DNA of 64,000 nucleotides from Bacteroidales bacterium (GCA_963676725.1 OY781463.1:2701421-2765420); one strand, 5' to 3'. Counted from the stretch's first letter, positions 25,503 to 41,172 are shown. Program-made: numbers and translations. The notes: generated by a model not told the origin, from the sequence alone.

Positions 25503-25530
25503 ATCTATTTGATTGTATGATGATTTTTTG
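25461..25530. repeat. 70-nt exact direct repeat, copy 1 (5' end and upstream region of the 550-aa gene)
   Basis: ttggttcacattctttaatattcggacgaaacaaaagtacaaatctatttgattgtatgatgattttttg is identical to 39331..39400. Confidence 0.95.
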
Positions 25531-25795: not shown

Positions 25796-26098
25796 TTAGT
25801 TCAAAATTGTCTCAGAGAAGAAAATAAATAATACAATCCAAATAATTGCTGATAACCAAGAAATTCCTAGAAATAATAAAATCTTGATTAAAAACTTTTT
25901 TTCATCCTTATTTATAGTTTCAGATTTATTAACAGTTCTCAAAATCCGGAATGCATCAATCGTATTATTAACATGCCCTGTATACTTTGGGTTTTCTCTT
26001 TGCATCAAACTTTTTAATTTCTTTCTATTTGCTAAATACAAAAGAAGGGAGATACCAGCGGGTATTGTTGAGATGTAGAAAATTATAATGTTATTCAT
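25796..26098 (-). CDS. Small membrane protein, putative immunity protein for cassette H
   Basis: 100 aa with two hydrophobic helices (IIIFYISTIPAGISLLLYLA; ILLFLGISWLSAIIWIVLFIFF). It lies directly downstream of the toxin cassette on the same strand and is AT-rich. Confidence 0.55.
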   Translation of the reverse strand: MNNIIIFYISTIPAGISLLLYLANRKKLKSLMQRENPKYTGHVNNTIDAFRILRTVNKSETINKDEKKFLIKILLFLGISWLSAIIWIVLFIFFSETILN

Positions 26099-26111
26099 AT
26101 CTATATTGTAT

Positions 26112-26357
26112 TTATCTCCTTGATCCAGGACGTGACCAAAAATCTCTTGATGGAGGTGAAAAAGTTATTGTATATGAAAAGTAAAGGAACCAGCCAGCAC
26201 CAACACCAATGTTTCCACCATAACCATTTAAATTATTACCATAATGATCTCGTACAGCACCATGACTCATATCTTTATATCCTTCAAAACTAAGGGGTGT
26301 AGGCCCAATAGATAAGTTTACTCCACTTGCCCAACCAGAAAAGTCATTCATACTCAT
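26112..26357 (-). CDS. Gly/aromatic-rich 81-aa ORF, ATGA-coupled to the cassette H glycine-zipper frame
   Basis: Its ATG overlaps the TGA of the upstream frame (aaaaATGAgt). It contains RDHYGNN, which resembles the [10 protein letters not shown] and EEHYISGSLY termini of cassettes B and F. Confidence 0.4.
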   Translation of the reverse strand: MSMNDFSGWASGVNLSIGPTPLSFEGYKDMSHGAVRDHYGNNLNGYGGNIGVGAGWFLYFSYTITFSPPSRDFWSRPGSRR

Positions 26358-27198
26358 TTTTTATTGGTTTGTGAATAACCCATTCCAGCACTTGCACCCC
26401 AACCAATAACTGCACCTAATGTTAAATACATCTTTGAGTTTCCATAGCTATCTACAACAGCTCCAATATCTCCCATTGCTCCAAATCCAGCAGCAGCGGC
26501 ACCGTTAGCAACTGAAATAACTTGGCCACGATTATCTTCATCACCCCACCAGCTGAGCCTTTATTCTCATTTGTTTTATCTATTTTATCTGTTTTGTTTT
26601 TTTTCTTGTCGCCATCACCCTCAATCTCATCAAAATTGATTTCATATCCATGCCACAATCCTTCTGGATCTTCCATCCATTGCGACCAAATGTCACAATC
26701 ATCAAAACCATGTGGATTCATCCCCGTTGGATCGATAAATTTAATAGGGTTATTAAAGCTATTGTTATATGGGCTCCAGCAATTCATTTCTTCTGCTTTT
26801 GGGTCAACAGAATGCCACCGGGCGATTTGAGGGTCATAAAACCTCGCCCCATAATCATACCAATCCAAACCAAAATCATCCTGCAGCTCACTTCGACTAC
26901 GCTCAGTGCAACGCTTTCCATTATACTTGTATTTATTCTCAGGGCTGGAGTTGGCAGAACTCAAACCGGCAATGTTCATCCCAAAAGGATAATAGGCATC
27001 TTCCTGCAAGACATTTCCGTTTTGGCTGAGGCTAATGCGGGTGTTTCCCAAATGGTCTTTCAGGAAGTACTGGTATTCGTATGTGTCCTCGTTTTGCTTC
27101 ATAATGCGGCCTTCGGAAGTGAGGATAAACTGGAGTTGGTTGTTTTCATACACAAAATTAGCAATATAATCGGATTGGTCAAGAGCACTGCCATCGGA
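26354..27198 (-). pseudogene. Rhs C-terminal toxin cassette H (frameshifted; glycine-zipper type C-terminal domain)
   Basis: Rhs core end SDGSALDQSDYIANFVYENNQLQF...LKDHLGNTRISL...QEDAYYPFGMN...[44 protein letters not shown]...NNPIKFIDPTGMN. The reading frame breaks near 26550-26560. The alternative frame (26354..26560) reads RLSWWGDEDNRGQVISVANGAAAAGFGAMGDIGAVV...GAVIGWGASAGMGYSQTNKK-stop. Confidence 0.7.
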
Positions 27199-27212
27199 TT
27201 ATTCGAGCTTTT

Positions 27213-27380
27213 TATTTGCCCGTCAAACACTGCCTGTGGGCTGCCATCTATGGTGTTAAAGGTGAGCCCGGCATGTTGTCCAAAATACCAATTATTGGCT
27301 TGTTTGTTTTGGGCATAAGTTAGTGTAGCTCCCAGAAGGAAGCTGGTCAATGTTATAGTATTTGTTGTCCGAAAAAACAC
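27213..27380 (-). pseudogene. Leader fragment L1: signal peptide plus the first ~33 residues of an NNWYFG-family gene, joined out of frame to cassette H
   Basis: MFFRTTNTITLTSFLLGATLTYAQNKQANNWYFGQHAGLTFNTIDGSPQAVFDGQI parallels residues ~28-64 of the 23850..25502 protein. Homology ends at FDGQI, and a TAA precedes the Rhs frame. Confidence 0.75.
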
Positions 27381-27449
27381 GAAACAAATATATGAATTTA
27401 ATAATCTTGCTTCTAAATAAAATGGGGGTTGGCGATATTATTTTATGCC

Positions 27450-27596
27450 CGAAAATCAACAATCATTGTCAGTCAGCTACCTGCGGCAAGCTGGTTCAAT
27501 ATCATTGGCGAAGCTACTATTGCCGATGCAATATTGGACCGGTTGATACATACTTCCCACAGAATTGAATTAACAAGGAGACAGTTTAAGAAAAAA
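27450..27596 (+). mobile_element. Remnant of the IS21-family helper ATPase IstB (C-terminal ~50 aa only)
   Basis: IIVSQLPAASWFNIIGEATIADAILDRLIHTSHRIEL matches the IstB C-terminal pattern (S-N/Q...W...G[DE]..[AL]A.AILDRL.H.[AS]H.[IL].L). There is no Walker region, transposase or terminal repeats. Confidence 0.6.
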
Positions 27597-27731
27597 AGTA
27601 ATATTGTCAGCCAATCGCGTTCTTTAATAACTTTACGAATCAGACGGGTCAATATCACCGGAATGTGCATTAATATTATACGGTGATGTTTTCTCTGCTT
27701 GTTCCTGTTCTTTTGATTTTATGAAGCAGTT

Positions 27732-27977
27732 TTAATTAAGTAAACAATACAAAAAAGCAATAAAATTAATCACAATAAAGGCATAAAGTGCAATACTGTA
27801 ATAAGATGTACTCCTGTATTGTGAAATATATTGGTAAAGAACAAAACTCAATAAACACGATGTAACTACTTGTACAGCAACTCCAGTTATTGATAAAACA
27901 AGATTAATCTCTGTGTTGCACAGATTAATAGAGAATGAAATACAAATTAATGCAGCTATAAAAAGTTTTTTTTTCAT
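27732..27977 (-). CDS. Small membrane protein, putative immunity protein for cassette G
   Basis: 81 aa with three predicted TM helices. Its start lies 2 nt after the toxin stop. Confidence 0.55.
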   Translation of the reverse strand: MKKKLFIAALICISFSINLCNTEINLVLSITGVAVQVVTSCLLSFVLYQYISQYRSTSYYSIALYAFIVINFIAFLYCLLN

Positions 27978-27979
27978 TT

Positions 27980-29185
27980 TTAATCATTTTCTTTTGAATA
28001 AACTAACTTTAATGAAAAATCAAGTGAAACATGGAGTACGCCGCCGGGTGTAATGATCAAAGGAACTTTTCCCCCTATTGCAGCACCTGTGCTTATTGTC
28101 GTTGAATTGTTCATGTTACTTATTGTTGTCTCACTTTGAGTAAAAGGTACACCAGTGCCTATGGTAACTGTTGCTTCAGAATTTAGATTTGGATCAATAG
28201 TATATTCAACCCCGTACCCTTTTGCCTGTGCTACCAAATTTAAGGAAGGATTTTCATTCTTTTCCGTTACAATATCCACCTCAGTTTTACCTGTATATAG
28301 TTCTGTTTCTGATTTAGCAGTAATACTAGTTTTATTCAATTCTATTGCAGCTCCGCCGCCCGCTTCTCCTTTAATATTATAAGTAACGCCTAACTCCTCA
28401 CTTACGGATCCTTCAAGTTTTGTTTCCAGCGTCGTGTTTTCAATAATATCATTTATTTTATTTTTTATACTTTTTATTGCTGATCGTAAAAGATTATATG
28501 CGGTAGTTTGAATCCTGTGGGCAATATAATTTTTGACTCTGTTTTTAAAGTCTTCATCTCTTGGGTCTGGCACATCATCAAATTCATGGTCGTTAGCCCC
28601 ATTAGGGTCAATACGCCCCAATGGGTTATTTTGAACATAGTTAAACGGGCTTAGCCATTCTCTTTCTTCTGTTTTAGGGTCGGATACGTGCCATCTGCCA
28701 ATAGAGGCATCATACATCCTCGCCCCGTAATCATACCAATCCAGGCCAAATTCATCCTGCAATTCCTTGCCGTTGTATTTGTATTTGTTTTCGGAACAGG
28801 AGTTGTTATAGCTTAAGCCTTTTATATTCATCCCATAGGGGTAATAGGCATCTTCCTGTAAAATGTTCATATCTTCATCGAAGGTAATACGGGTATTGCC
28901 CAGGTGGTCTTTCAAAGAATACTCATAAGAGGAACTGCCATCCTCATGCATTACTATCCTGCCATGGTTTGCCATTAAATAGGCAAGCTCCGTATTGTCC
29001 CCGTTTACATCAGAATACACAAAACGTCCGGCATAGTCAAACGTTTTGGATATCTGGTGGTCGATGCGGGTCTGTTTCCGCAGCTTTGTGCCAGTGGCCG
29101 TATATAGGTAATTGATTCCCTGCATAATGGTGCTTCTGGAACTTGTTCCGGTTACAATCTGCAAATAATTACACGCGATAATCAT
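27980..29185 (-). CDS. Rhs C-terminal toxin cassette G (beta-rich C-terminal domain of unknown family)
   Basis: ATG start. Conserved ...TGTKLRKQTRIDHQISKTFDYAGRFVYSD...LKDHLGNTRITF...QEDAYYPYGMN...YKYNGKELQDEFGLDWYDYGARMYDASIGRWHVSDP...NNPLGRIDPNGAN, followed by a unique Gly/Thr/Ser-rich domain with an alternating pattern. Confidence 0.75.
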   Translation of the reverse strand: MIIACNYLQIVTGTSSRSTIMQGINYLYTATGTKLRKQTRIDHQISKTFDYAGRFVYSDVNGDNTELAYLMANHGRIVMHEDGSSSYEYSLKDHLGNTRITFDEDMNILQEDAYYPYGMNIKGLSYNNSCSENKYKYNGKELQDEFGLDWYDYGARMYDASIGRWHVSDPKTEEREWLSPFNYVQNNPLGRIDPNGANDHEFDDVPDPRDEDFKNRVKNYIAHRIQTTAYNLLRSAIKSIKNKINDIIENTTLETKLEGSVSEELGVTYNIKGEAGGGAAIELNKTSITAKSETELYTGKTEVDIVTEKNENPSLNLVAQAKGYGVEYTIDPNLNSEATVTIGTGVPFTQSETTISNMNNSTTISTGAAIGGKVPLIITPGGVLHVSLDFSLKLVYSKEND

Positions 29186-29414
29186 ATGGTCTTAAAAAAA
29201 CATCAAATTTAATGATAACTGTTGTGTAATTAAAGTCTTTGTTGATTAATTGAATTTCAAGAAGAACTTGAAGTTATATATTACTGGTTTACATATCTGA
29301 ATCTCAAAAGTAATTGAATTATTATACTTACTAAACTGCTTGAAAAAATGGCAATTACATTTAACTTTGATTGCGTCAACACTAATTCCATATATTGCTG
29401 AAAGGCTCTATTCT

Positions 29415-29735
29415 TTAATTACCTTTAAGTTCTTTTATAAAGTATATTGGTGCATAAATTATATTTAAAAATATTAACAACAATAAATTTATAGTGCTAT
29501 CTTTTCTGTTTTTCCAAACTATAATATTGTATATCCAAAAAACAAAAGCAACTAATCCTGTCAATCTGGCTAATAAACTAGATGTGTACAATCCTATTTT
29601 CTCGGCTATCACTTTCTTTGCTTCATAATTATCAGCAGTCAGTAAAAAAATTGGAATTAGCAATATTAATAAAACATACACAATGCTAATTATCCAAAAC
29701 ACTATCCATAAATTTTTTTTTCTCATATTTCTCAT
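29415..29735 (-). CDS. Small membrane protein, putative immunity protein for cassette F (apparent paralog of 38032..38331)
   Basis: 106 aa with three or four TM helices. The C-terminal half FVFWIYNIIVWKNRKDSTINLLLLIFLNIIYAPIYFI aligns with FGFSIYNLYIWAKYDKRITIFFLLFFLMGLYTPFYYL of the cassette A partner. Confidence 0.6.
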   Translation of the reverse strand: MRNMRKKNLWIVFWIISIVYVLLILLIPIFLLTADNYEAKKVIAEKIGLYTSSLLARLTGLVAFVFWIYNIIVWKNRKDSTINLLLLIFLNIIYAPIYFIKELKGN

Positions 29736-29739
29736 ATTT

Positions 29740-30885
29740 TTAATAAAGAGACCCAGATATATAATGTTCTTCTATTGGATCATCTTTTTCTTTAGGGATT
29801 TCTATTGTTTCTGTTTTAGTTTTTGTCCTTTCATTATCTATATATTCAACACCAATAACTGCTTTAATGCCGAGTAAGATCGCTTTAACTCCTACTCCTA
29901 TTTCATAGCCTATTGAATTGGTTGTTGTAATGCCCTCATCACTTTCAACTACTGTCTCCTTAGACACAAGTGCCTGTATTTCTGTTTTTGACTTGGCAAA
30001 CGTTGGGTGTTCGTCTATAGCATATTCGCTTGATGTTGATTTTCCTCCACCTGGAATTTCTATATTTACCTCATAGTTAACATTTTTAGATTCTTGATTA
30101 AACAAAAACTTAACTTTACCTTCAGGCGTAATACTTAACCCAACTTTAGTCTCTCCAACTACTTTTCCACCACTAATTCCAAGATCTAAAACATCTCCAT
30201 AACTCAATCCAATTTGAGGACCAAAACTTCCCGTAAATTTCAAATAAATCTGCGTTGTTCCAGCTGGCGGATCACCTGGACCCATTCCCATCCAATCTAT
30301 ATAATGGATAGGATGATTAGCCGCATAAACAAATGGTGATTGAAAACTATATTTCGTAGCTAAGGGGTCAAGCGTGTGAAATCGGGCAATAGCTGGGTCA
30401 TAAAACCTCGCCCCATAATCATACCAATCCAAGCCAAAATCACCTTCCAACTCACTTCGACTACGCTCAGTGCAACGCTTTCCATTGTATTTGTATTTAT
30501 TCTCAGGGCTGGAGTTGCCAGAATTCAATCCAGCAATGCTCATCCCATAGGGATAATAGGCATCTTCCTGCAAAATATTCAGGTTTTCATCAAAGGTAAT
30601 GCGGGTATTGCCCAGATGGTCTTTTAAAGAGAACTCATATAAGGAACTGCCATCCTCATGCATTATTATCCGGCCTTGGTTGGCCATTAAATAGGCAAGT
30701 TGGGTATTGTCCCCATTTTGGTCGGCATACACAAAGCGGCCGCTATAATCCCATGTGGCAGACACTTGATGGTCGATCTTTGTCTGTTTGCGTAGTTTAA
30801 TGCCATTGGCTGCATATGAAAAGTTCACTGACTGCATAATCGAACCGTTGGTATTTGTTCCGGTACTATTAATCTTTTGAGGCAA
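29740..30885 (-). CDS. Rhs C-terminal toxin cassette F (orphan; no ATG at the homology boundary)
   Basis: The track start is TTG, six codons after a stop, and the homology boundary is sharp and shared with cassette C. Conserved block ...NGIKLRKQTKIDHQ...LKDHLGNTRITF...[44 protein letters not shown]...NHPIHYIDWMGMG. The C-terminal domain is unique and beta-rich, ending EEHYISGSLY. Confidence 0.75.
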   Translation of the reverse strand: MPQKINSTGTNTNGSIMQSVNFSYAANGIKLRKQTKIDHQVSATWDYSGRFVYADQNGDNTQLAYLMANQGRIIMHEDGSSLYEFSLKDHLGNTRITFDENLNILQEDAYYPYGMSIAGLNSGNSSPENKYKYNGKRCTERSRSELEGDFGLDWYDYGARFYDPAIARFHTLDPLATKYSFQSPFVYAANHPIHYIDWMGMGPGDPPAGTTQIYLKFTGSFGPQIGLSYGDVLDLGISGGKVVGETKVGLSITPEGKVKFLFNQESKNVNYEVNIEIPGGGKSTSSEYAIDEHPTFAKSKTEIQALVSKETVVESDEGITTTNSIGYEIGVGVKAILLGIKAVIGVEYIDNERTKTKTETIEIPKEKDDPIEEHYISGSLY

Positions 30886-31014
30886 ATTTAATAAATTACA
30901 CTTTTAAAATGTCGAGTTTTTGGGGAAGCTTACACATAATAATAAATATGTTTTTTAATTTAAAGCAAGCTCTCTAATTCCAAGTGCGTATGGATAATAC
31001 AGTGAGTTGTAATA

Positions 31015-31719
31015 TTAATCAATCTCTTTGTCTTTCAATCTGGGGTCGGCAATTAATATATAATCTTCCGAAACTCCTTTATAGAAACCCAAATTTTCAA
31101 TAGTGTATTTTTCCGTTAGCATAGTGTCAATTACAACTCCGTTATTAGTTAATTTATAAATTGTTGAAGATTGATAATAAACGCTGTCAGGTGTACAATA
31201 TGCTTCATGGAGGTCCGATCCTCCTAATTCAATAGTACCATCACCGTCTAAATCTCCATAATAAGAAGCTTTAGTTTTAGTTATCAATATACACTTCTCG
31301 TCTTTAATCTCCAATATATGATAATTATTCCCGAGAATTGGATCAAATTCCTCCAAAATTAAATATTCTAAATTATCCAGTACTAAAAACTTTACGCGAC
31401 CCCTATTAAGATAAAAGGATTCATTAGTTAGACTATTATAGACCAGATTTGACCTAATATATAAGCTGGGGTGAAGGTAAATCGTATCTCCTTTATCAAC
31501 TAGTCCTGAATCTGGTGCCACAATATATACTGAATCATTTATGTCAACCAACAAGAAGTTGTTTTTTTCTTGCTTTATGTCAATATCATAAGTTGTTTCA
31601 AGTTCGTATAGTGCATCTGGAATTGATGAGTGCTTTTGATTTTCAATAGTTGAATTATTGCAAAAACAACCAGAAAATAGAAAACAGCCGATTATGTAGA
31701 ATAATTCTATTGGCTTCAT
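31015..31719 (-). CDS. Lipoprotein, putative immunity protein for cassette E
   Basis: I chose the start MKPIELFYIIGCFLFSGC (lipobox LFSGC), ATG at 31719, 4 nt after the toxin stop. It contains a DGDG motif (YYGDLDGDGTIELGG). Confidence 0.6.
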   Translation of the reverse strand: MKPIELFYIIGCFLFSGCFCNNSTIENQKHSSIPDALYELETTYDIDIKQEKNNFLLVDINDSVYIVAPDSGLVDKGDTIYLHPSLYIRSNLVYNSLTNESFYLNRGRVKFLVLDNLEYLILEEFDPILGNNYHILEIKDEKCILITKTKASYYGDLDGDGTIELGGSDLHEAYCTPDSVYYQSSTIYKLTNNGVVIDTMLTEKYTIENLGFYKGVSEDYILIADPRLKDKEID

Positions 31720-31723
31720 AATT

Positions 31724-32923
31724 TTATTCAATGTCCCCGTCCTCAAACCTTCCTCCTTTCGTAAAGTCAAACCACCAACCTTCTTGAACAACCATTTCAT
31801 CATTACTACTTGAATTTTGAGAAGGGCTTTGTGTGACATTTTTACCAAACACTTGATTCTTAATGATTATCATGATCAAATTTATAAATGAAAGAGGATT
31901 TTTGTCTGAACTTTGATTATTCAAGTACATATTAGACTTAGGTCTGCTAGGCCTATCATCTACAGCTGTTTTATCTTTGTTTAAAATAAAAAATTGCGGA
32001 GATGATTTAGAGCCAAATGTTTGCGAGATAGTGCCAACTTTATTTATTTTGCCTACATTCATTACTAAAACCTCATCCTCGCTTTTAGGAGAAACCACAG
32101 CAATATGACCACCAAATTTCCCGGGTTTCTCTCCACTACCATCATTTGATACATAGGAGGCGATGACTGTTATTCCTTTTTTTGCATAATAGATAGCATT
32201 CTTTTCATTAACAGGCGTTGCGAAATTGTTGTTGACGTACTTGCCAACAGCTCCTCTAAGCTTCCAGCCCATTTGATTAGCTGTGTAATCATTTATTTCA
32301 TAGTCTCCTAAAGAATAGTCCCTGGCTTGATTCAAAATATACTGAACTCCAATATTACAATATGTAGTTTCACCATTCTTGGGCCATTTTTTAATAGCTT
32401 CATTGCCAGCCGCAATTAAACCTTTTATTGTTGGGAAAATTCCATTCCCATCTGGGTCTATAAAAACAATGGGATTGTTAGTAGCGTAGTTATAACACGA
32501 AAATGAATAAAATTCTTCTGAAAGCATATCCAAGACAAACCATCGTCCTAGCCCTGCATCATACATCCTCGCCCCATAATCATACCAATCCAAACCAAAC
32601 TCATCCTGCAGCTCACTTCGACTACGCTCAGTGCAACGCTTGCCGTTGTATTTGTATTTGTTTTCGGAGCAGGAATTGCTATAGCTTAAGCCTTTTATAT
32701 TCATCCCATAGGGATAATAGGTATCTTCCTGCAAGACATTTCCGTTTTGGCTGAGGCTAATGCGGGTGTTTCCCAAATGGTCTTTCAGGAAGTACTGGTA
32801 TTCGTATGTGTCCTCGTTTTGCTTCATAATGCGGCCTTCGGAAGTGAGGATAAACTGGAGTTGGTTGTTTTCATAAACAAAGTTAGTAATATAATTGGTT
32901 TGGTCAAGAGCACTGCCATCGGA
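31724..32923 (-). CDS. Rhs C-terminal toxin cassette E (candidate papain-fold Cys/His amidase or peptidase C-terminal domain)
   Basis: The frame is open from 32923 (SDGSALDQTNYITNFVYENNQLQF...) and the first ATG is at 32827. Core end ...YKYNGKRCTERSRSELQDEFGLDWYDYGARMYDAGLGRWFVLD...NNPIVFIDPDGNG. The C-terminal domain has TTYCNIGVQYIL (Cys) and FGGHIAVVSP (His), as in NlpC/P60/CHAP-like enzymes. Confidence 0.7.
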   Translation of the reverse strand, partial: SDGSALDQTNYITNFVYENNQLQFILTSEGRIMKQNEDTYEYQYFLKDHLGNTRISLSQNGNVLQEDTYYPYGMNIKGLSYSNSCSENKYKYNGKRCTERSRSELQDEFGLDWYDYGARMYDAGLGRWFVLDMLSEEFYSFSCYNYATNNPIVFIDPDGNGIFPTIKGLIAAGNEAIKKWPKNGETTYCNIGVQYILNQARDYSLGDYEINDYTANQMGWKLRGAVGKYVNNNFATPVNEKNAIYYAKKGITVIASYVSNDGSGEKPGKFGGHIAVVSPKSEDEVLVMNVGKINKVGTISQTFGSKSSPQFFILNKDKTAVDDRPSRPKSNMYLNNQSSDKNPLSFINLIMIIIKNQVFGKNVTQSPSQNSSSNDEMVVQEGWWFDFTKGGRFEDGDIE

Positions 32924-32937
32924 TTATTCGAGCTTTC

Positions 32938-33102
32938 CATTTGCCCACCAAAAACTGCTTTTGGGCTGTCATCTATAGTGCTAAAGGTGAGCCAAGCATT
33001 ATGGCCAAAATACCAATTGTTGGCCTGCTTGCTTTGGGCATGAGCAAAAACAGCTCCTAAAAGCAGTGTGAATAATAATAAATATGGAGCATGATAATTC
33101 AT
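32938..33102 (-). pseudogene. Leader fragment L2 (signal peptide plus NNWYFG N-terminus) with the same out-of-frame junction as L1
   Basis: MNYHAPYLLLFTLLLGAVFAHAQSKQANNWYFGHNAWLTFSTIDDSPKAVFGGQM is followed by the same junction sequence as L1 (..SSNNPMAVLLT.PIILL..). Confidence 0.75.
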
Positions 33103-33261
33103 TTAAATGTAATTCCCTTTCTAACTAGAAGATTGCACTCTGACGTTAAGTGTTCCGCCGGATTCACAATGTTTTGAATACCATGGCATAGTATATATTA
33201 ATTGATATATAATATTATGCTACTATTTGCAGTCAAGCTAAATATCAATGTTTTATTCATA

Positions 33262-33459
33262 TTATTTTTTTTTCAAATATGAATAGGAAAATTCAGCGAA
33301 CATATAGCCAATATATATTCCTGCCTGTAAAAAAAATAAATATGTAAATACTTTGTGCAAACGTTCATGTAGAAAGAAAAAAAATAAAAAATATAACCAA
33401 AAAACCAAAACTACAATGATGCGCGAATTAGAGGCAAGCCAATATTTAAAACCATTCAT
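33262..33459 (-). CDS. Small membrane protein (second immunity-type ORF after cassette D)
   Basis: 65 aa with two TM helices. It overlaps the upstream small ORF by 14 nt. Confidence 0.4.
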   Translation of the reverse strand: MNGFKYWLASNSRIIVVLVFWLYFLFFFFLHERLHKVFTYLFFLQAGIYIGYMFAEFSYSYLKKK

Positions 33460-33670
33460 CTTTCTTGAGATTAATTGCTGATATTAATATAGCGAAAAGC
33501 ACTATTAATTCTGATATTCCATATAGCTTAGAATACTTATATTCAATATACTCTCCAAAAAATATTGAAAACAGAATTTGTGCGAAACCAATTACTAAAC
33601 TAGTAATATGAATCTTTTTTGCTAAACTGTTATTCAAACTCTTCTTTTTCCTTTCTTTTTTTCGCTTCAT
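33446..33670 (-). CDS. Small membrane protein, putative immunity protein for cassette D
   Basis: 74 aa with a basic N-terminus and two TM helices. It overlaps the 3' end of cassette D by 41 nt. Confidence 0.45.
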   Translation of the reverse strand: MKRKKERKKKSLNNSLAKKIHITSLVIGFAQILFSIFFGEYIEYKYSKLYGISELIVLFAILISAINLKKDEWF

Positions 33671-34817
33671 TGATTAAGTGTTTTTCCCATCTTTTTATCC
33701 GATCCTTCTCATAGTCTTCTTTTTGTTTCTTATCAGCATTTTCCCAAGCGTCTGGGTCTGTTTTTTTAATGTGCTTGCCAACAACTGACTCAAAATCATT
33801 TAGACGATAAAATCTAGTATTTTTGTCTTCATTTGGATTACTAAAAAATTCTTTTCCCATATCTCTTCCTTTTTCATCTTTTTCGTTTTGTGTTTGGTCG
33901 TATGGCCTCTTTGAAGGATCCTTATTAAAAAGATGATTAAAAGCATCTGCCGCTGTGGCAATTGTTACCACTACTGCCGCGGTCACAAGTTTAGGATTTC
34001 CTTCCGGATTACCTTTCGGCTTTCCTTCACCACATGAGTTGAGGTTTGAGTTGTTTTTTCCTATATTTTTACTATGATTTCTAGCATTCTTCAGTTTCTC
34101 CTTTTGAGAACGAACCTCTCTATTTTCTTGTTCTTGTCTTTCGTCACGAAGATCTTCCCAATATTTATAAGTTATATATGTAGTTATGGCTGTAGTAGTT
34201 ACCGCTGCTTGATAAATAGTATAAATGATAAAAGGGTACTCTCCATTCTTATCTATAAATATAACAGGGTTATTGACTGCATAAGCATATGTTGTTTGAA
34301 ATCGATACAATTCAGCTTTGGGATCAATTGAATGAAACCTCCACAAAGCCGCATCATACATCCTCGCCCCATAATCATACCAATCCAAACCAAACTCATC
34401 CTGCAGCTCACTTCGACTACGCTCAGTGCAACGCTTGCCGTTATACTTATATTTATTCTCAGGGCTGGAGTTGGCGGTACTCAAACCGGCAATGTTCATT
34501 CCAAAAGGATAATAGGCATCTTCCTGCAAAATATTCAGGTTTTCATCAAAGGTAATGCGGGTATTGCTCAGGTGGTCTTTTAAGGAATACTCATATGCAG
34601 GGCTGCCATCTTCCTCTATCGTGATGCGCCCCTGTGCAGCCATTAAATAAGCAAGCTCCGTATTGTCCCCGTTTACATCAGAATACACAAAACGTCCGGC
34701 ATAGTCAAACGTTTTGGAAACTGGTGGTCGATGCGGGTCTGTTTCCGAAGCTTTGTGCCAGAGGCCGCAATAGGTAGTTAATTCCCAGTATGATAGTGTT
34801 CCTTGAGCTTGTTTCAC
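33630..34817 (-). CDS. Rhs C-terminal toxin cassette D (5' region frameshifted relative to cassette G; TM-plus-charged C-terminal domain)
   Basis: ...SKTFDYAGRFVYSDVNGDNTELAYLMA...LKDHLSNTRITF...YKYNGKRCTERSRSELQDEFGLDWYDYGARMYDAALWRFHSIDP...NNPVIFIDKNGEY. Upstream of SKTFDY the DNA matches cassette G but lacks 1 nt (ggaaactgg versus ggatatctgg). The C-terminal domain has a TM-like YPFIIYTIYQAAVTTTAITTYITY and a long K/E-rich tail. Confidence 0.7.
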   Translation of the reverse strand: MKQAQGTLSYWELTTYCGLWHKASETDPHRPPVSKTFDYAGRFVYSDVNGDNTELAYLMAAQGRITIEEDGSPAYEYSLKDHLSNTRITFDENLNILQEDAYYPFGMNIAGLSTANSSPENKYKYNGKRCTERSRSELQDEFGLDWYDYGARMYDAALWRFHSIDPKAELYRFQTTYAYAVNNPVIFIDKNGEYPFIIYTIYQAAVTTTAITTYITYKYWEDLRDERQEQENREVRSQKEKLKNARNHSKNIGKNNSNLNSCGEGKPKGNPEGNPKLVTAAVVVTIATAADAFNHLFNKDPSKRPYDQTQNEKDEKGRDMGKEFFSNPNEDKNTRFYRLNDFESVVGKHIKKTDPDAWENADKKQKEDYEKDRIKRWEKHLINEAKKRKEKEEFE

Positions 34818-34902
34818 TTAAGCTGATCTTTTAATGTAAATTTGATCAATAATACTTTTAAAATGTCCATTTTATTGAGAAGCCAACATCTATTAAAATC
34901 TA

Positions 34903-35280
34903 TTATTCCTTATATATTATGATTCCATTAATTTTTAGTTTTCGATCGTTAACAACTTTTACCATATGCTCTCTTTTGTCTATGAATGCTGGTGAAAATG
35001 TTTCCATGAGGCCATATTTATAACATTTTAATACTATACCTCTATTTCTTTTATAACTCCATGTTCCTTTGCATGTTTTATGTGAATAATTACCGATAAT
35101 TCTTAAGTTAAAAGTGCTGTCACTGTTCAACTGCAAAATATAGTAATATTCATTTTTTGTTGGGCGGCTCTTATATATGCCTTGAAAATTATCATGTTGC
35201 ATGTAATAATTTGAGCTACATGAGAATAGCAATATAATAAGAAATAGATGCAAGTTAGTCCTGATAATAATAATCCCCAT
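34903..35280 (-). CDS. Lipoprotein, putative immunity protein for cassette C
   Basis: 125 aa, MGIIIIRTNLHLFLIILLFSC (lipobox). It overlaps the toxin 3' end by 26 nt. Confidence 0.55.
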   Translation of the reverse strand: MGIIIIRTNLHLFLIILLFSCSSNYYMQHDNFQGIYKSRPTKNEYYYILQLNSDSTFNLRIIGNYSHKTCKGTWSYKRNRGIVLKCYKYGLMETFSPAFIDKREHMVKVVNDRKLKINGIIIYKE

Positions 35281-36526
35281 AAGTATCTCCTTTTACTATA
35301 CTTTCATTACTTGGTAGATTTTGTAATGCTTTATTATTTGGATACGCCTTAAGCCAATCTTCCCTCTTAGAATAAATGTCTAAAGGATATTGTGCCGTAT
35401 TAGCCTTTCCATTAGGCCCATAAAAACTACCGTCATCTATATTTTTCACCCAACTTCGGGTAATTAGCTCATATTTATTCGCAATTCCATAAGATTGAAT
35501 ATTTTGAACAGAGACTGGGGAAACATTAAACTGCGCCCGATAGGCTTCCACTTCATTTTTAAGATCGACTAAAAAAGCTAATCCACTGGATTTGAAAAAA
35601 GCTATTTCCCCTTCCATAAATTGTTTAACATGCGTCACCTCATGGATTAGTACAGCAGCATTAGTATAAATAACATTAATTTTATTATCCTCTAATAATT
35701 CTAGAGTGCCAGCTTTCCCATTTACGGAACCTTCCATCGGCGTCAATACAAACGTCTGTTCCTCAGTGGCCTCCATATCATCCATGTGTTTAAGAGATAC
35801 CTTTAAACGAAATATCCTCTTATTTAGCCTTTCTTTTTTCTTTTCGCTGTTTTTTTCAGTATGTAGCTTATTGGTCAGCCTCCCTACTAATTTTTCCAAA
35901 AATCTTCTTTGACGCTCAAACTCTTCTTGACTGGCAGGGTCAATATCCATTCCTGTGGGATCTGTATAGCGAACGGGATTATTTGCAAACATTCTGTATG
36001 GACTAATTGGGTGGTATTTTTCAAGAAGCGGATCCATGCTTAATGTCATGGTCAGAGAAGCGTCATAGAATCTTGTTTCAAAATCATAGCAATTTAGTCC
36101 AAAGTCCTCCTGATGTTCTTTGCCGTTGTATTTGTATTTGTTTTCAGAACAGGAATTGTTATAGCTTAAGCCTTTTATATTCATCCCATATGGGTAATAG
36201 GCGTCTTCCTGTATAATGTTCAGATCTTCATCAAAGGTAATGCGGGTATTGCCCAGATGGTCTTTTAAGGAATATTCATAAGATGAACTGCCATCCTCAT
36301 GCATTACTATCCTGCCATGGTTTGCCATTAAATAGGCAAGTTGGGTGTTGTCCCCGTTGTTGTCTGCATAAATAAAGCGGCCGCTATAATCCCATGTGGC
36401 AGACAATTGATGGTCGATCTTTGTCTGTTTGCGTAGTTTAATGCCATTGGCTGCATATGAAAAGTTCACTGACTGCATAATCGATCCACTGGTATTTGTT
36501 CCGGTACTATTAATCTTTTGAGGCAA
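35255..36526 (-). CDS. Rhs C-terminal toxin cassette C (HExxH metallopeptidase-like C-terminal domain; orphan, TTG at the boundary)
   Basis: It has the same 5' homology boundary as cassette F. ...YKYNGKEHQEDFGLNCYDFETRFYDASLTMTLSMDP...NNPVRYTDPTGMD. The C-terminal domain contains AAVLIHEVTHVKQFMEGE. Confidence 0.7.
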   Translation of the reverse strand: MPQKINSTGTNTSGSIMQSVNFSYAANGIKLRKQTKIDHQLSATWDYSGRFIYADNNGDNTQLAYLMANHGRIVMHEDGSSSYEYSLKDHLGNTRITFDEDLNIIQEDAYYPYGMNIKGLSYNNSCSENKYKYNGKEHQEDFGLNCYDFETRFYDASLTMTLSMDPLLEKYHPISPYRMFANNPVRYTDPTGMDIDPASQEEFERQRRFLEKLVGRLTNKLHTEKNSEKKKERLNKRIFRLKVSLKHMDDMEATEEQTFVLTPMEGSVNGKAGTLELLEDNKINVIYTNAAVLIHEVTHVKQFMEGEIAFFKSSGLAFLVDLKNEVEAYRAQFNVSPVSVQNIQSYGIANKYELITRSWVKNIDDGSFYGPNGKANTAQYPLDIYSKREDWLKAYPNNKALQNLPSNESIVKGDTYGDYYYQD

Positions 36527-36544
36527 ATTTAAAAAATATATTCA

Positions 36545-36739
36545 TTTAATAAATACGCTGGAGTAACCTTCTCCCTGAAATATTTGCCCACCAAAAACTG
36601 CTTTTGGGCTGTCATCTATAGTGTTAAAGGTGAGCCAAGCATTATGGCCAAAATACCTTTGTTGGCTTGTGAGATGTGCTGCGAAACGCCTACTAATATG
36701 TTGAAAATAAAAAGTTAGATAATAATACTTTTGCAACAT
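36545..36739 (-). pseudogene. Leader fragment L3 (degenerate signal-peptide region; retains ..YFGHNAWLTFNTIDDSPKAVFGGQIFQGEGYSSV)
   Basis: It is homologous to L2 and to residues ~39-72 of the 550-aa protein (DGQIDQSEGCASI). There is a deletion in the AQ.KQANNW segment, and a stop lies immediately upstream of cassette C. Confidence 0.65.
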
Positions 36740-36787
36740 GGCACACTTCCAAGTAGATTTTTATTACACGCTATCCTAATGTAAAAA

Positions 36788-37264
36788 TTATTTAATATTT
36801 AAGTTGTCAATCACTGCTATAATGTTTTTTAGGTCACTGTCTTTCCATTGATTAACTCTACTTTCCATTATCTCTGCAATATATTTATCTTGGTTTTTAA
36901 AAACCAACGTGTTTTTGCGAATACCATATCCAACTTTTTGTTTGTAGTACTCATATTTAAGCAAATAATACGGAATGGAAACCGATCGTTTCCAAAAGAT
37001 ATATCTATAATAGAAAATAGTACATAGCTGTTTATTCTCGGAAAATGCAACTTTATAAACCACTCTGCCTTTATTGCGACTTATCATTAATATTATAATC
37101 AAAAGAACAATTAACTGAATACCTATCCAATACGTATAAAAAAAAGAAGCACCTTTAGCAATAAAAACAAAATTTATAATTGGTAGGATGTTAAATTCTG
37201 AATTATACTTACTATACCAATAAAACTTTTTTTTAAAAACCTTCATAATGGGTATTTTATTCAA
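36788..37264 (-). CDS. Membrane protein, putative immunity protein for cassette B
   Basis: 158 aa with two TM helices near the N-terminus followed by a soluble domain. It lies 17 nt downstream of the toxin stop. Confidence 0.5.
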   Translation of the reverse strand: MNKIPIMKVFKKKFYWYSKYNSEFNILPIINFVFIAKGASFFYTYWIGIQLIVLLIIILMISRNKGRVVYKVAFSENKQLCTIFYYRYIFWKRSVSIPYYLLKYEYYKQKVGYGIRKNTLVFKNQDKYIAEIMESRVNQWKDSDLKNIIAVIDNLNIK

Positions 37265-37281
37265 TTTACATGAATGTTGTG

Positions 37282-38001
37282 TTAATAAAGTGATTTATTT
37301 CTATAGTGATCACGCAATGCTTCTTCAGTTGGATCCATCTCTTCTACCTGTTCTTTAGGATTCATTGTTTTATTAATAATTTCATTAAAATTCTCTTTTA
37401 CTGAATTTATCGCATTTTGAATTTTACCACCAACAGATTCAAGGAATTCTTTACCGGAGGATACAATAAACTTGGTCGGTTCAGAGGCAGTAACAAGCAT
37501 ATTTGCACCCGAAACAGCACCGTCTATTGTATATTTAGGAGATCCTCCTGTAAGGCCGACTCCTAAATCCACTACAGCCCCTGCTTCTCGTAATCCTGAA
37601 CCTTCCATATCAAAAGCTTTTTCGGCAGTAGCTGCTGTTAATTCACCTAAGCCTCCCGGTACATTGTTCTCCCCATCATTAGCGGCACCATCAATAATTT
37701 GTGCCGTACCCAGAGCAATTGTTCCACTCCCGCTTATAATTAAAACTACACCAGCTGGACCCCCAACTCCCGTCGCAGCTAGACCAACCCCTCCGACCCA
37801 TTGGGTAACACCTCCAGCAACAGTAAGGCATCCTAGAGCAACATCCCAGCCATCTTCTCCGTTAATATCAATAAATCTCATTGGATTATTATATGTATAA
37901 TGGAATGGGGTTAATGAATAGTATTTTTCAGCTAAAGGATCAACAGCATGCCACCGGGCGATTTGAGGGTCATAAAACCTCGCCCCGTAATCATGTCTTA
38001 A
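37282..38001 (-). pseudogene. Rhs C-terminal toxin cassette B, 5'-truncated within the core (starts at ..[10 protein letters not shown]); glycine-zipper C-terminal domain
   Basis: The open frame from 38001 reads [52 protein letters not shown]... and the first ATG is at 37881. The C-terminal domain is Gly-rich ([29 protein letters not shown]) and ends [10 protein letters not shown]. Confidence 0.7.
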
Positions 38002-38031
38002 TCACCTGCCAACAAATTATAGTGAAATACA

Positions 38032-38331
38032 TTATACCCACCCTTTTCTTTTTGCATTAAGATAATAAAATGGGGTGTACAGTCCCATAAGAAAGAAAAG
38101 AAGGAAAAATATAGTTATTCTTTTGTCGTATTTCGCCCATATGTATAAGTTATAAATAGAAAATCCAAACGTTACATATGATAATATACTACGAATACAG
38201 GAAAAAACATCCCCAATTAAAATATCTTTTAAAAACATTAATTTGAATATCGATGAAAGGAAAATACCAATGAATACTGCAAATAATAAAAAATTCGATA
38301 TTAGTGCGACGGTTAATACAGTTTTTTTCAT
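38032..38331 (-). CDS. Small membrane protein, putative immunity protein for cassette A
   Basis: 99 aa with three TM helices. It is an apparent paralog of 29415..29735. Confidence 0.6.
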   Translation of the reverse strand: MKKTVLTVALISNFLLFAVFIGIFLSSIFKLMFLKDILIGDVFSCIRSILSYVTFGFSIYNLYIWAKYDKRITIFFLLFFLMGLYTPFYYLNAKRKGWV

Positions 38332-38343
38332 AATAAATATTAT

Positions 38344-39372
38344 TTAATAAAGTTCGCCATTTCTAAAATGCAACAGCATTGCCTCTTTTATAGGAGATAA
38401 TGTTGGAGTAATAGATTTTGATTTATTATTATCCAAGTCAGAATTGTTGTTATTGACCTTATTGCTACTGGGTGTATATTTTATTTGTAATTCTGCTCCT
38501 ACTCCTACCATAAGAGCATTTACACTTTGACTTATTCCGAAACCAAAGCCGTCACTACTTGCAGACACTTCGGCGCGACCAGCTCCTACAGAAACAGTTG
38601 GTTTAGGGTCATCATCTTCTTTGGCTTTATTTTCAGTATTCGATGATATTATTGGACTGACATTTGTCTTTGAGCTTTCAAATGTGTATGGTCCCAAACT
38701 GAGAGAATAATTGTCAAAATGTCCTTCGGTTGTAACTCTGTTAAATTCAGGACATACATTGAAATTACCAGTTTCGGTATCGTAGCTAAAAGAGATGGTA
38801 AGTGTATTCTTTAGGCTTCCGTCAAAATCATAATTTAAACTATATGGTGTTTGAGTAAAAGGAATCTTTCCGCTAAAACCAATGCTTCCACTACCCATAG
38901 ATAAAGAAAAACTAAAAGACCATTCATCATTTCCATCTGGATCTATATAAAAAATAGGATTGTTATTAACGTATAAATAGGGAGAGGTGTTGTGATTTCC
39001 CTCTGATAAATTATCAATCACATGCCACCTCCCCAAAACCGCATCATAAAACCTCGCCCCGTAATCATACCAGTCCAATCCAAACTCATCCTGCAGCTCA
39101 CTTCGACTACGCTCAGTGCAACGCTTGCCGTTGTATTTGTATTTGTTTTCGGAGCAGGAATTGCTATAGCTTAAGCCTTTTATATTCATCCCATAGGGGT
39201 AATAGGCGTCTTGCTGCAAAACAGTTCCGCTTATTCTATGGGTGACGGGTATTTTATCGAACCGAATCAATGACAATTGCTTGGCTTCTAATGCACAATA
39301 AGCGGTACCATTTGTATGTATGGATGCGGTTTGGTTCACATTCTTTAATATTCGGACGAAACAAAAGTACAA
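38344..39372 (-). CDS. Rhs C-terminal toxin cassette A, fused at its 5' end to a copy of the first 14 codons and upstream region of the 550-aa gene
   Basis: The N-terminus MYFCFVRILKNVNQ is identical to that of 23850..25502 (part of the 70-nt repeat; TTG start). It continues ...LQQDAYYPYGMNIKGL...[43 protein letters not shown]...NNPIFYIDPDGND. The C-terminal domain is beta-rich and ends LLHFRNGELY. Confidence 0.7.
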   Translation of the reverse strand: MYFCFVRILKNVNQTASIHTNGTAYCALEAKQLSLIRFDKIPVTHRISGTVLQQDAYYPYGMNIKGLSYSNSCSENKYKYNGKRCTERSRSELQDEFGLDWYDYGARFYDAVLGRWHVIDNLSEGNHNTSPYLYVNNNPIFYIDPDGNDEWSFSFSLSMGSGSIGFSGKIPFTQTPYSLNYDFDGSLKNTLTISFSYDTETGNFNVCPEFNRVTTEGHFDNYSLSLGPYTFESSKTNVSPIISSNTENKAKEDDDPKPTVSVGAGRAEVSASSDGFGFGISQSVNALMVGVGAELQIKYTPSSNKVNNNNSDLDNNKSKSITPTLSPIKEAMLLHFRNGELY

Positions 39373-39400
39373 ATCTATTTGATTGTATGATGATTTTTTG
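39331..39400. repeat. 70-nt exact direct repeat, copy 2
   Basis: Identical to 25461..25530, offset by 13,870 nt. The flanks diverge on both sides. Confidence 0.95.
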
Positions 39401-39439
39401 TGCTAAAATAACAATAGGTATAGGCAAATTACCTAAACA

Positions 39440-39517
39440 CTATTTATTAGGCTGTTTGTTTTGGGCAAACCCTCTATCAGCCCATAAAAGCTGGTACAGC
39501 AATAGTAGAAATTTCAC
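39440..39517 (-). pseudogene. Leader fragment L4 (signal-peptide-like VKFLLLLYQLLWADRGFAQNKQPNK-stop)
   Basis: It contains the FAQNKQ signal-peptidase/N-terminus junction shared by L0-L2 and is truncated by a stop after 25 codons. The possible start is GTG. Confidence 0.45.
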
Positions 39518-39590: not shown

Positions 39591-40583
39591 ATGTCCATCA
39601 ATACATTAAACCGCAAACAGGCTATTCTAGCCATGAATCAGGCAGCAGCAGCAAATGAAGCCTTTTTCTTTACCATTGATTTTGATGTGCAAAACTGTAT
39701 TTTTATTCTGCGAAAGGATCTAGAAAAATCGGGGATTTCTTTTCGGATTGGCACCATCAAAAACGAAAATAATTCTACGCCAAGCAAAAACCTAAAGCCG
39801 GAAATTGTGGCGTCACCCCCATCCTACCTGCAATATAAAGCCGGTTTTGATTCGGTAATGCAGCATTTGCAGTTTGGCAATACCTATCTCACAAATTTTA
39901 CATGCTCCACACCCATAAAAACAAATATCCCTGCAGAAGAAATCTTCCAAAGAAGCCAGGCCAAATACAAATTATTTGTCCCGGGGCATTTTCTGGTTTT
40001 TTCGCCCGAATGTTTTGTGAAAATCAATAAAAATGGCCGTATTTTTTCGTACCCAATGAAAGGGACCATAGACGCTTCAATACCGGATGCAGCACAAAAA
40101 ATACTATCCGACAGCAAAGAAATGGCCGAACATAATACCATTGTTGATTTAATCCGCAATGACCTGAGTAGTATTGCTGAAAAAGTACGCGTAACAAAAT
40201 TCCGATATATCGACGAACTAAAAACCTCTTCTAAAACGCTTTTGCAGGTCAGTTCAGAGATTTCAGGGCAACTCCCGATCAACTGGCAGGAAAATCTAGG
40301 GACATTAATTTTCAAACTTTTACCCGCCGGCTCCATTAGTGGGGCACCAAAACAGAAAACCATTGAAATCATCAGGGAAGCAGAAGGAACCCAAAGAGGA
40401 TTTTATACCGGGGTTTGTGGCTATTTTGATGGCAGCACACTCGATAGTGGCGTTATGATCCGTTTTATTGAAATGCAGCATCAAAATATGATTTACCGCA
40501 GTGGTGGCGGAATTACAATCAATAGTGATGCGCGAAAAGAATACGAAGAAATGAAAGACAAAATATATGTGCCAATATCTTGA
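39591..40583 (+). CDS. pabB: Aminodeoxychorismate synthase component I (short form)
   Basis: Chorismate-binding signature LLPAGSISGAPKQKTIEIIREAEGTQRGFYTGVCGYFDG. The 330-aa size fits the short Bacteroidota PabB. pabC follows and pabA is nearby. Confidence 0.8.
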   Translation: MSINTLNRKQAILAMNQAAAANEAFFFTIDFDVQNCIFILRKDLEKSGISFRIGTIKNENNSTPSKNLKPEIVASPPSYLQYKAGFDSVMQHLQFGNTYLTNFTCSTPIKTNIPAEEIFQRSQAKYKLFVPGHFLVFSPECFVKINKNGRIFSYPMKGTIDASIPDAAQKILSDSKEMAEHNTIVDLIRNDLSSIAEKVRVTKFRYIDELKTSSKTLLQVSSEISGQLPINWQENLGTLIFKLLPAGSISGAPKQKTIEIIREAEGTQRGFYTGVCGYFDGSTLDSGVMIRFIEMQHQNMIYRSGGGITINSDARKEYEEMKDKIYVPIS

Positions 40584-41172
40584 AAGCATTGCTTGCCGCG
40601 ATGGAGCCTTTGCATTGGCACACTACCATCAACAGCGCATTGAACGTACATTTTCAGAAGCATTCCATGCTAGGCCGAGCTTTCAATTAAAAGCCGTTTT
40701 GAATGAGCTCAGACCTCCACAAAAAGGATTGTATAAATTTCGCATGATCTATGGCAAAGAAGGCATTATCAGCTATGGTTTCACACCATATATCCTACCA
40801 ATGATCAAGTCTTTAAAGCTGGTTCGTAAGGATGAGCTTGCATACAGGCACAAAAAAGCAGATCGCTCCATCTTAAATAAAGCATTTGAGGAACGCAGTG
40901 GATGCGATGATATTATTATTGTGCAAAACGATAAACCCACAGACTCCTGGTTTTGCAATCTTGTTTTTAAAATGGGCGATCGGCTGCATACACCCTTAAA
41001 CCCATTATTGGAAGGCATACGCAGAGCCTATTACCTTGATGAAGAACAGATCATCGAAAAAGATATAAGCATAAATCAAATCAGTGAATATGAGGGTGTT
41101 TACTTAATCAATGCTTTGCTCCCGCTTAGCACTGCTCCTTTTATTGCAATAGAAAACATTAAAGGGCTGTAA
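40567..41172 (+). CDS. pabC: Aminodeoxychorismate lyase-like (class IV aminotransferase fold) protein
   Basis: It overlaps pabB by 17 nt. The ~200-aa size and position match the short PabC-like proteins that follow pabB. No strong motif was verified by eye. Confidence 0.55.
   Translation: MCQYLESIACRDGAFALAHYHQQRIERTFSEAFHARPSFQLKAVLNELRPPQKGLYKFRMIYGKEGIISYGFTPYILPMIKSLKLVRKDELAYRHKKADRSILNKAFEERSGCDDIIIVQNDKPTDSWFCNLVFKMGDRLHTPLNPLLEGIRRAYYLDEEQIIEKDISINQISEYEGVYLINALLPLSTAPFIAIENIKGL

Follow-up and report, generated by a model that had tools for sequence, protein, structure and literature searches.

We analyzed a 64-kb stretch of one strand of the genome of an uncultured Bacteroidales bacterium (GCA_963676725.1 OY781463.1:2701421-2765420; hereafter the window, with positions counted from its first nucleotide). 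Between 25.8 and 39.4 kb, the minus strand carries an array of eight units, each of which retains only the last ~45–190 residues of an Rhs core. The core fragment leads into a distinct C-terminal domain (CT) and then into one or two small open reading frames (ORFs), and a gene for a secreted protein, here called X550, lies directly 3′ of the array. The region is a set of orphan Rhs toxin/immunity cassettes without a full-length rhs gene in the window. Loci of this type are already well known; the instance described here belongs to an uncultured Bacteroidales bacterium, and a sister strain carries an array at the syntenic position (L117).

An earlier note on this DNA had described eight orphan Rhs cassettes with no full-length rhs, PAAR or VgrG gene in the window and with small ORFs directly after each unit, and this description was borne out. 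The conserved block follows the consensus ..KDHLGNTR..QEDAYYP[YF]GM..NKYKYNGK..GLDWYDYGAR.YD..NNPxxxxDPxG and is an RHS core: TIGR03696, the RHS repeat-associated core model of NCBIfam, has a cut-off of 32.5 bits, which seven units (A, C, D, E, F, G and H) exceed with scores of 48–64 bits. Unit B, with ~45 core residues left, is too truncated to match this model. A tblastn search of the window with P0256, a full-length Rhs protein of the same species, gave exactly eight matches, one per unit, all within residues 785–976 of the query (residues 925–970 for unit B), and the shell (residues 1–784) had no match anywhere in the 64 kb. Likewise, the window ORFs include no PAAR, VgrG, YD shell, type VI secretion system (T6SS) or recombinase/integrase genes. 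The core/toxin boundary NNPxxxxDPxG is present in 8/8 units, as variants in B, D and F, and the sequences 3′ of it cannot be aligned with one another, the A/F pair excepted. In all eight units, the downstream ORFs start 2–17 nt after the toxin stop codon or overlap it, and GC content drops along the cassette (cores 41%, CTs 37%, immunity ORFs 27%, rest of the window 40%). Six of the eight CT ORFs and 9/9 downstream ORFs are intact, and 6/8 toxin ORFs stay open across 190–245 AT-rich codons. Given the TIGR03696 scores, the tblastn matches, the absent shell, the small-ORF layout and the drop in GC, the eight-cassette observation is real and far beyond chance. Two types of core can be distinguished, type 1 (C, D, F and G) and type 2 (E and H); the units and their downstream ORFs are listed here.

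Unit A, 38344..39372, minus strand: in-frame fusion of the X550 start with a degenerate core (from ..VLQQDAYYPYGM), then a beta-rich CT (TIGR03696 3e-14)
immA, 38032..38331, minus strand: small membrane protein, homologous to immF (1.6e-6)
Unit B, 37282..38001, minus strand: core cut at ..HDYGAR, glycine-zipper-like CT
immB, 36788..37264, minus strand: ORF with hydrophobic stretches in its N-terminal third (residues ~32–63)
Unit C, 35255..36526, minus strand: type-1 core and HExxH CT (TIGR03696 5e-14); public protein P0014
immC, 34903..35280, minus strand: lipoprotein-type ORF, lipobox-like LFSC
Unit D, 33630..34817, minus strand: type-1 core; CT consisting of a hydrophobic segment and a K/E-rich region
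immD1 and immD2, 33262..33670, minus strand: two overlapping small membrane ORFs
Unit E, 31724..32923, minus strand: type-2 core and predicted Tse1-like Cys/His peptidoglycan amidase CT
immE, 31015..31719, minus strand: 234-aa lipoprotein-type ORF, lipobox-like FSGC
Unit F, 29740..30885, minus strand: type-1 core and beta-rich CT; identical to public protein P0001, on a 5,190,514-bp contig
immF, 29415..29735, minus strand: membrane protein
Unit G, 27980..29185, minus strand: type-1 core and beta-rich CT common to the sister strain; public protein P0015
immG, 27732..27977, minus strand: small membrane ORF, identical in the sister strain
Unit H, 26112..27198, minus strand: type-2 core and glycine-rich CT
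immH, 25796..26098, minus strand: small membrane ORF

The units differ in how much of a coding sequence they preserve. C, F and G retain a conserved ATG (MQSVNF/MQGINY) and are called as proteins in public annotation, which corrects the earlier view of their starts. Degenerate Rhs coding sequence (..NLLNLPQKI..) forms the 5′ "edge" of C, D and F and runs ~60 nt upstream past an in-frame TAA; the sharp homology edge that the earlier note had placed at C and F is in fact this degenerate sequence. A promoter assignment for TAAATTTG, which lies at this edge in C and F, was also discarded, since the same DNA encodes ..LNLP.. of the Rhs repeat and is thus weak promoter evidence. Unit D is frameshifted, as had been noted, by two compensating 1-nt deletions within its first ~40 codons. 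The CT of unit H is spread over three frames through two frameshifts, at about 26560 and 26360, and an intact counterpart of unit B with a full core exists as P0010.

Neither Pfam nor NCBIfam placed any CT or immunity ORF above cut-off. The CTs had been described as mutually unrelated, which holds except for A and F, whose CTs are homologous (blastp 1.7e-6), as are immA and immF. The CT of unit C has a weak DUF6782 match (0.008). An AlphaFold2 (AF2) model of the F CT, built from a five-sequence alignment, is all-beta with six long strands at a low-confidence predicted local distance difference test (pLDDT) score of 50.6; Foldseek matches of this model in the PDB were discarded, with template modeling scores of about 0.14. 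The toxin and immunity families, mostly without an assigned family, could be mined. Short C-terminal tails recur among otherwise distinct CTs. Units A, B and F share an extreme C-terminal ..H[YF]xxxxLY before the stop codon (DNA ..CTTTATTAA; 38344-38375, 37282-37313 and 29740-29771), a terminal ..GGFY is common to P0005 and an orphan of a related genome (L102), and the tail of unit E, ..WFDFxxGGRFEDGD[IV]E (31724-31790), recurs in the M23-peptidase cassette P0007.

Among 1.84 billion proteins, the small family to which the CT of unit E belongs has 48 representatives. The domain always lies C-terminal to an NNPxxxxDPDG boundary, and its Cys34 and His118 are invariant in 17/17 aligned members. 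A profile of these 17 sequences matches Tse1 in the PDB (E 2e-4, ~120 residues), with the Cys and His aligned to the Tse1 catalytic Cys and the His of GHVAVV. With the single sequence, phmmer against the PDB gave no match, Pfam gave none at the gathering score, and the AF2 model reached a pLDDT of 35, at which the fold is not readable. We predict that the unit E CT is a Tse1-like peptidoglycan amidase, a refinement of the Cys/His papain-like type proposed earlier; the adjacent lipoprotein-type ORF immE fits a periplasmic immunity protein. The likeness to the Tse1/Tae1 papain-fold amidases (PDB 4eob, 7tvh) lies in a catalytic Cys and His in register, but the match is remote, and instead of forming stand-alone T6SS cargo, the domain is attached to an Rhs core.

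Hydrophobic stretches occur in 7/9 of the small downstream ORFs and lipobox-like signals in 2/9, and by their layout these ORFs are candidate cognate immunity genes. The adjacency of toxin and immunity gene is conserved elsewhere: the F-type pair lies side by side in a relative (L079, 4541-5683 and 4198-4626), there on a type-2 core, and the B and G pairs do so in the sister strain.

The same genome encodes a full-length partner. P0256 is a 1189-aa Rhs protein with DUF6443 and Toxin-JAB1 domains and, at its N-terminus, a signal-peptide-like sequence; the families listed for it do not include PAAR, and the literature searched contained no mention of DUF6443. The 5,190,514-bp source contig is the longest on record for its cluster, and the gene lies at a locus other than the array. 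In a sister assembly (L116), this main locus lies ~1.7 Mb from the array and reads rhs, immunity gene, three orphan cassettes (one truncated) each with an immunity gene, and an X550-like gene; the main-locus orphans P0068 and P0124 are also on record for the source contig. A protein homologue search had at first indicated that close relatives are short Rhs-core proteins only. We rejected this, as the search was biased by query length: it returned only proteins of ~0.6–1.75 times the query length (e.g., a 381-aa query yielded nothing longer than 648 aa, and a 271-aa query nothing longer than 473 aa) and did not recover P0057 by its own N-terminus, and a 1169-aa Rhs protein from the relative L102 as query retrieved full-length proteins including P0256.

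Core sequence ties the two loci together. The P0256 core is 81% identical to unit H over 408 nt and shares an 80-nt exact tract with it, and exact tracts shared with the main rhs core reach 36 nt in E and 35 nt in F. Main-locus cores as a group are 72–90% identical to window cores (main rhs core alone, 72–81%). The full-length partner foreseen by the earlier note is present in the genome, but at 81% to its closest unit rather than at the >90% expected. Directly upstream of the DUF6443-rhs, the sister assembly also carries three large genes (L116 2865-9988; 582 aa, 700 aa with Por_Secre_tail, and 1089 aa) that are possible accessory or export factors; tblastn found no homologues of them in the window.

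X550 and pieces of X550-like genes frame and punctuate the array. The pieces, which we term X-frags, are 5′ fragments upstream of A, C, E and H that had escaped the earlier note; they are listed here with X550, a long direct repeat and an insertion sequence remnant.

X550, 23850..25502, minus strand: secreted protein with a signal peptide, an NNWYFG (AQNKQANNWYFG) motif and weak PKD; likely start GTG at 25469
71-nt perfect direct repeat, downstream copy, 25460..25530, minus strand: over the X550 TAGATTTG box and probable GTG start
71-nt perfect direct repeat, upstream copy, 39330..39400, minus strand: equal to the X550 5′ region, with the TAGATTTG box and a GTG start at 39339
X-frag0, 39443..39514, minus strand: truncated signal-peptide end of an X550-like gene (..LLWADRGFAQNKQPNK and stop), just upstream of the array
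X-frag upstream of C, 36545..36680, minus strand: ..QQRYFGHNAWLTFNTIDDSPKAVFGGQIFQGEGYSSVFIK and stop; junction J2; 99% identical to L117 7807-7942
X-frag upstream of E, 32924..33102, minus strand: start codon, signal peptide, AQSKQANNWYFG..GGQ; out of frame to the core (junction J1)
X-frag upstream of H, 27199..27380, minus strand: signal peptide, AQNKQANNWYFG..FDGQ; junction J1 as in E
IS21 istB 3′ remnant, 27429..27686, plus strand: between immG and the H X-frag; PF01695 8.4e-11; 94% identical to an intact IS21 in the relative L040

An X550-like gene lies directly 3′ of every Rhs array seen in the clade, in the same orientation and with no type IX secretion system (T9SS) tail (window 23850-25502; L040 2529-4160; L116 19353-20960; L102 7634-7993; L036 2-130; L117 15447-17247), and the arrays of the relatives L040, L079, L102 and L036 end in such genes. 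X550 is frameshifted in the sister strain and hence dispensable. Divided by its X-frags, the array consists of four core-to-X-frag segments: (A, B), (C, D), (E, F, G and the IS21 remnant) and (H, then X550 itself). The out-of-frame junction J1 is common to E, H and the main rhs locus, and J1 together with a 24-nt insert described below is common to the array at this locus and the main-locus array. Programmed frameshifting at the E/H junction was considered and dropped, as E (AAATGGAAAG) does not preserve the A-rich run of H (AAATAAAAAG). An intact IS21 (istA and istB) also sits inside the array of the relative L040 (6626-7910), in opposite orientation. To our reading, the feature that is new here is that X550-like 5′ fragments punctuate an Rhs array; they look like a second recombination anchor.

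The two copies of the 71-nt repeat are 100% identical, spaced 13870 nt apart and present in the sister strain too. They bracket the entire 13.9-kb array, which recombination between them would excise precisely. Because the repeat carries the probable start of X550, unit A is an in-frame fusion of MNQ, ~40 degenerate residues, core and toxin. Upstream of the repeat, GCCCAAAACAAACAGCCTAATAA of X-frag0 aligns with GCCCAAAACAAACAAGCCAATAA of X550, and this remnant suggests that the locus first held only an X550-like gene.

These features bear on whether the array is silent, as had been supposed. TAnnTTTG boxes are enriched on the coding strand (19 vs 7.7±2.4). They are found ahead of X550, the H X-frag and units A, C, F and G, as consensus matches only; the duplicated X550 promoter-like site is at 39377, and further boxes are at 36531, 30890, 29211 and 27392; sigma-70 promoter and terminator scans showed no enrichment. 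For unit A, with its perfect 71-nt copy of the X550 5′ region, TAnnTTTG box and in-frame GTG, silence appears questionable. Expression would allow an explanation in which the shell-less toxins are produced inside the cell and, together with their immunity proteins, act as toxin-antitoxin-like growth regulators, comparable to orphan Rhs of Salmonella, where internal expression of shell-less Rhs toxins has precedent (PMC7043789). The promoter-like copy and start of unit A, the same head in both strains, the conserved ATG of C, F and G and the enriched boxes upstream of A, C, F, G and H agree with it. However, several toxins look directed at the periplasm or membrane (the Tse1-like amidase with its lipoprotein immunity gene; the membrane immunity proteins) and would miss their targets without export, and the E and H junctions are out of frame. 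We consider growth regulation an improbable account of the array.

That recombination has shaped the array, as had been proposed, is seen both within the window and between strains. The cores are mosaic: block 1 is 100% identical between E and H, but in block 2 these two fall to 71% identity, with E 98% identical to A there and H 96–98% identical to main-locus cores; in block 3 it is D and E that are 100% identical. At the sister locus, the order is pabC, pabB, array, X550 and pabA, with flanks 97–99% identical to those of the window. Its head gene has the same X550-derived 5′ end, joined straight to a B-type CT. The window has in addition A_CT and immA (39006-37995), flanked by a 25-nt repeat, ATGATTACGGGGCGAGGTTTTATGA, that encodes DYGARFYD; this difference is the signature of C-terminal displacement or its reversal. 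Likewise, only the window has C_CT, D, E and F, and only the sister strain has P0005 and others. At the H-type X-frag, the two strains are collinear to ..FDGQ and then continue with J1 and a type-2 core in the window versus J2 and a type-1 core in the sister strain, which indicates that X-frags behave as recombination sites too. Orphans of this kind appear to be common in Bacteroidota: in a core-pattern survey covering at least 115 loci outside the source genome, 71/95 core matches that were not edge-limited, among the matches listed, had fewer than 300 open codons upstream of DYGAR.

The strain comparison also bears on the possibility that the array is neutral DNA, left behind by an rhs locus that lost its full-length gene and is now decaying. 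Both strains lack a head gene, X550 is pseudogenized in the sister strain, and the window contains frameshifts, truncations, the IS21 remnant and out-of-frame chimeric junctions, features that fit decay. Yet the array begins, at its 5′ end, with a junction to the X550 5′ region and not with a truncated rhs, cassettes have been gained as well as lost between strains with nearly identical flanks, and most ORFs are intact, with ratios of nonsynonymous to synonymous substitution (dN/dS) between strains of 0.12–0.35 in the cores. Neutral decay is accordingly quite unlikely to explain the locus.

A stronger competitor is an immunity island, in which selection acts only on the small ORFs, as protection against the Rhs toxins of neighbors, and the toxin parts are passengers that are never redeployed. 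In its favor, 9/9 immunity-type ORFs are intact, as against a damaged H, a truncated B core and a stop in the B CT of the sister strain, and immB has been kept yet has diverged between strains under purifying selection (dN/dS 0.30). Orphan immunity-gene arrays are moreover known in this order: the acquired interbacterial defense (AID) arrays of gut Bacteroidales hold immunity genes without toxins, some with a recombinase (10.1101/471110). Like the array described here, they are chromosomal, stockpile immunity genes and vary between strains, and their purpose is analogous. But AID clusters are free of toxin genes and often have a recombinase, whereas here each immunity-type ORF follows a toxin ORF and the window contains no recombinase. 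The six long, open toxin ORFs, a dN/dS of 0.32 for the B CT and the long exact tracts that the cores keep in common with the main rhs further speak against passengers. An immunity island is a less likely account of the array.

Five of the window cores carry a short in-frame insert, and a tandem array elsewhere in the window contains a related sequence.

24-nt in-frame insert CGTTGCACTGAGCGTAGTCGAAGT (RCTERSRS), 26890-26913, 30454-30477, 32615-32638, 34410-34433 and 39100-39123, minus strand: in five cores, after ..YNGK
Tandem array, 47027-50350: about 13 copies of a 240-266-nt unit over 3.3 kb; 47% GC and free of long ORFs

A sixth copy of the insert is found at the main locus (L116 17742-17765). 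Across the six copies, 0/24 columns of the insert vary as against 40/120 in the flanks, and recombination breakpoints lie on either side of it. Both features would fit programmed cassette switching, shufflon- or integron-like, by a dedicated recombinase acting at the 24-nt site. The window, however, has no recombinase or integrase, all copies are in direct orientation, and the insert is missing from C, G, the main rhs and every cassette of one related genome. The same 24-mer occurs in eight metagenome contigs (L118-L125) that are non-Rhs, non-coding and repeat-like, one of which (L119) holds 90-nt tandem copies, and six units of the window's tandem array hold CTGAGCGTAGCCGAAGT, one mismatch from the core of the insert. 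These occurrences point to a dispersed-repeat origin: the insert resembles one arm of a palindromic, dispersed repeat that became captured in a coding core, and the tandem array is a possible source family. Among the retrieved proteins, RCTERSRS is present in 39 short cassettes and in 0/91 proteins of at least 900 aa, a distribution confounded by phylogeny. Programmed switching is highly improbable.

The surroundings of the array are Bacteroidota-like: the window has T9SS C-terminal domains, an SprB/CHU_C adhesin, TonB receptors and ~40% GC, and its other large ORFs encode SprB/CHU_C, Big_7/Por_Secre_tail, kinases and similar proteins. Searches for tRNA genes and Rfam matches found none. The array is neighbored by pabB/pabC on one side, with pabB upstream on the opposite strand, and by pabA on the other. 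Array and X550 together split a pabA/trpG-like glutamine amidotransferase gene (23097-23735) from aminodeoxychorismate synthase/lyase pabB/pabC-like genes (39591-41172), and the sister strain has the same arrangement.

We conclude that the eight orphan Rhs toxin/immunity cassettes form a headless array, detached from the full-length gene, and that this array is probably remodeled by recombination and serves as a toxin reservoir and an immunity bank. Of this, the nature of the cassettes, the missing shell in the window, the existence of the partner gene, the mosaicism of the cores and the difference in cassettes from one strain to the other are observed. Homologous as well as illegitimate recombination would have built and remodeled the array, acting at two classes of repeated anchor: the conserved core, and 5′ pieces of the X550-like gene found at the end of every array in the clade. 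The array probably arose at the pab locus, when a distal segment of an rhs array recombined into an X550-like paralogue already resident there, through homology at the X550 end and, we infer, through an illegitimate join at the other end. It could then store immunity genes and toxin tips, the latter movable onto the full-length rhs via core recombination, and the first cassette at least may be transcribed from the captured copy of the X550 promoter. A more far-reaching version, which we regard as rather doubtful, is a general two-anchor system in which the core is the 5′ arm and the X550-like 5′ end the 3′ arm, so that headless satellites would be seeded at any X550-like paralogue, exchange with the main DUF6443-rhs, and be expressed via a captured X550 promoter and start.

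Several points weigh against the detached-reservoir interpretation. The main-locus DNA was read from the sister assembly L116 and not from the source genome itself, and the main rhs core is only 72–81% identical to window cores overall. For the type-1 cores (C, D, F and G), we identified no full-length partner. In the two strains seen, the main locus and the array have no CT cassette in common, and transfer of a toxin tip to the main gene was accordingly not observed. Decay is evident in the window, where H is frameshifted, B truncated and the 5′ end of D frameshifted, and in the sister strain, where the B CT has a premature stop and X550 a frameshift. The terms "reservoir" and "immunity bank" draw on layout and on analogy with the enterobacterial and bee-gut Rhs literature (PMC2935791, PMC3967940, PMC5727410), and the argument for a captured promoter draws on a consensus match only.

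Orphan rhs-CT/rhsI arrays formed via C-terminal displacement have been described in E. coli, Salmonella, Serratia and Snodgrassella alvi (PMC2935791, PMC3150448, PMC3967940, PMC5727410). The array described here resembles them in its core fragments that run to the boundary, polymorphic CTs, linked immunity genes, AT-rich cassettes and mosaic cores, and in the strain-to-strain turnover of cassettes bounded by short core repeats. Those arrays follow a complete rhs (PMC5727410), whereas neither the window array nor that of L117 occupies this classical position directly 3′ of a full-length rhs: the array is headless in both strains, with the complete gene ~1.7 Mb off in the sister assembly. The partner here is no PAAR/VgrG-linked T6SS effector but a DUF6443-Rhs with a Sec signal, and the window offers no PAAR/VgrG/T6SS neighborhood of the kind that marks a T6SS-delivered Rhs effector. 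Also unlike the known arrays, this one has a second internal repeat class, the X-frags derived from the 5′ end of a neighboring gene, and its toxin and immunity families are mostly unassigned, in contrast to those of Enterobacteriaceae and Snodgrassella. A further parallel is provided by the orphan cdiA-CT/cdiI modules of contact-dependent inhibition loci (PMC3150448). There, too, displaced toxin tips and immunity genes keep upstream homology for recombination, but the delivery family is another one (CdiA/two-partner secretion), and cdiB and cdiA are not present here.

The array does not overturn current understanding. Bacterial arms races draw on orphan toxin/immunity arrays as their raw material, and such arrays have been well characterized in Proteobacteria; here, the same orphan-array logic operates in an uncultured Bacteroidales bacterium, with a Sec-signal DUF6443 Rhs in place of T6SS adaptors. 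The comparison of two strains provides a concrete, base-level example of C-terminal displacement, and it also suggests a route by which an array may become separated from its delivery gene, through recombination at a second conserved flank.

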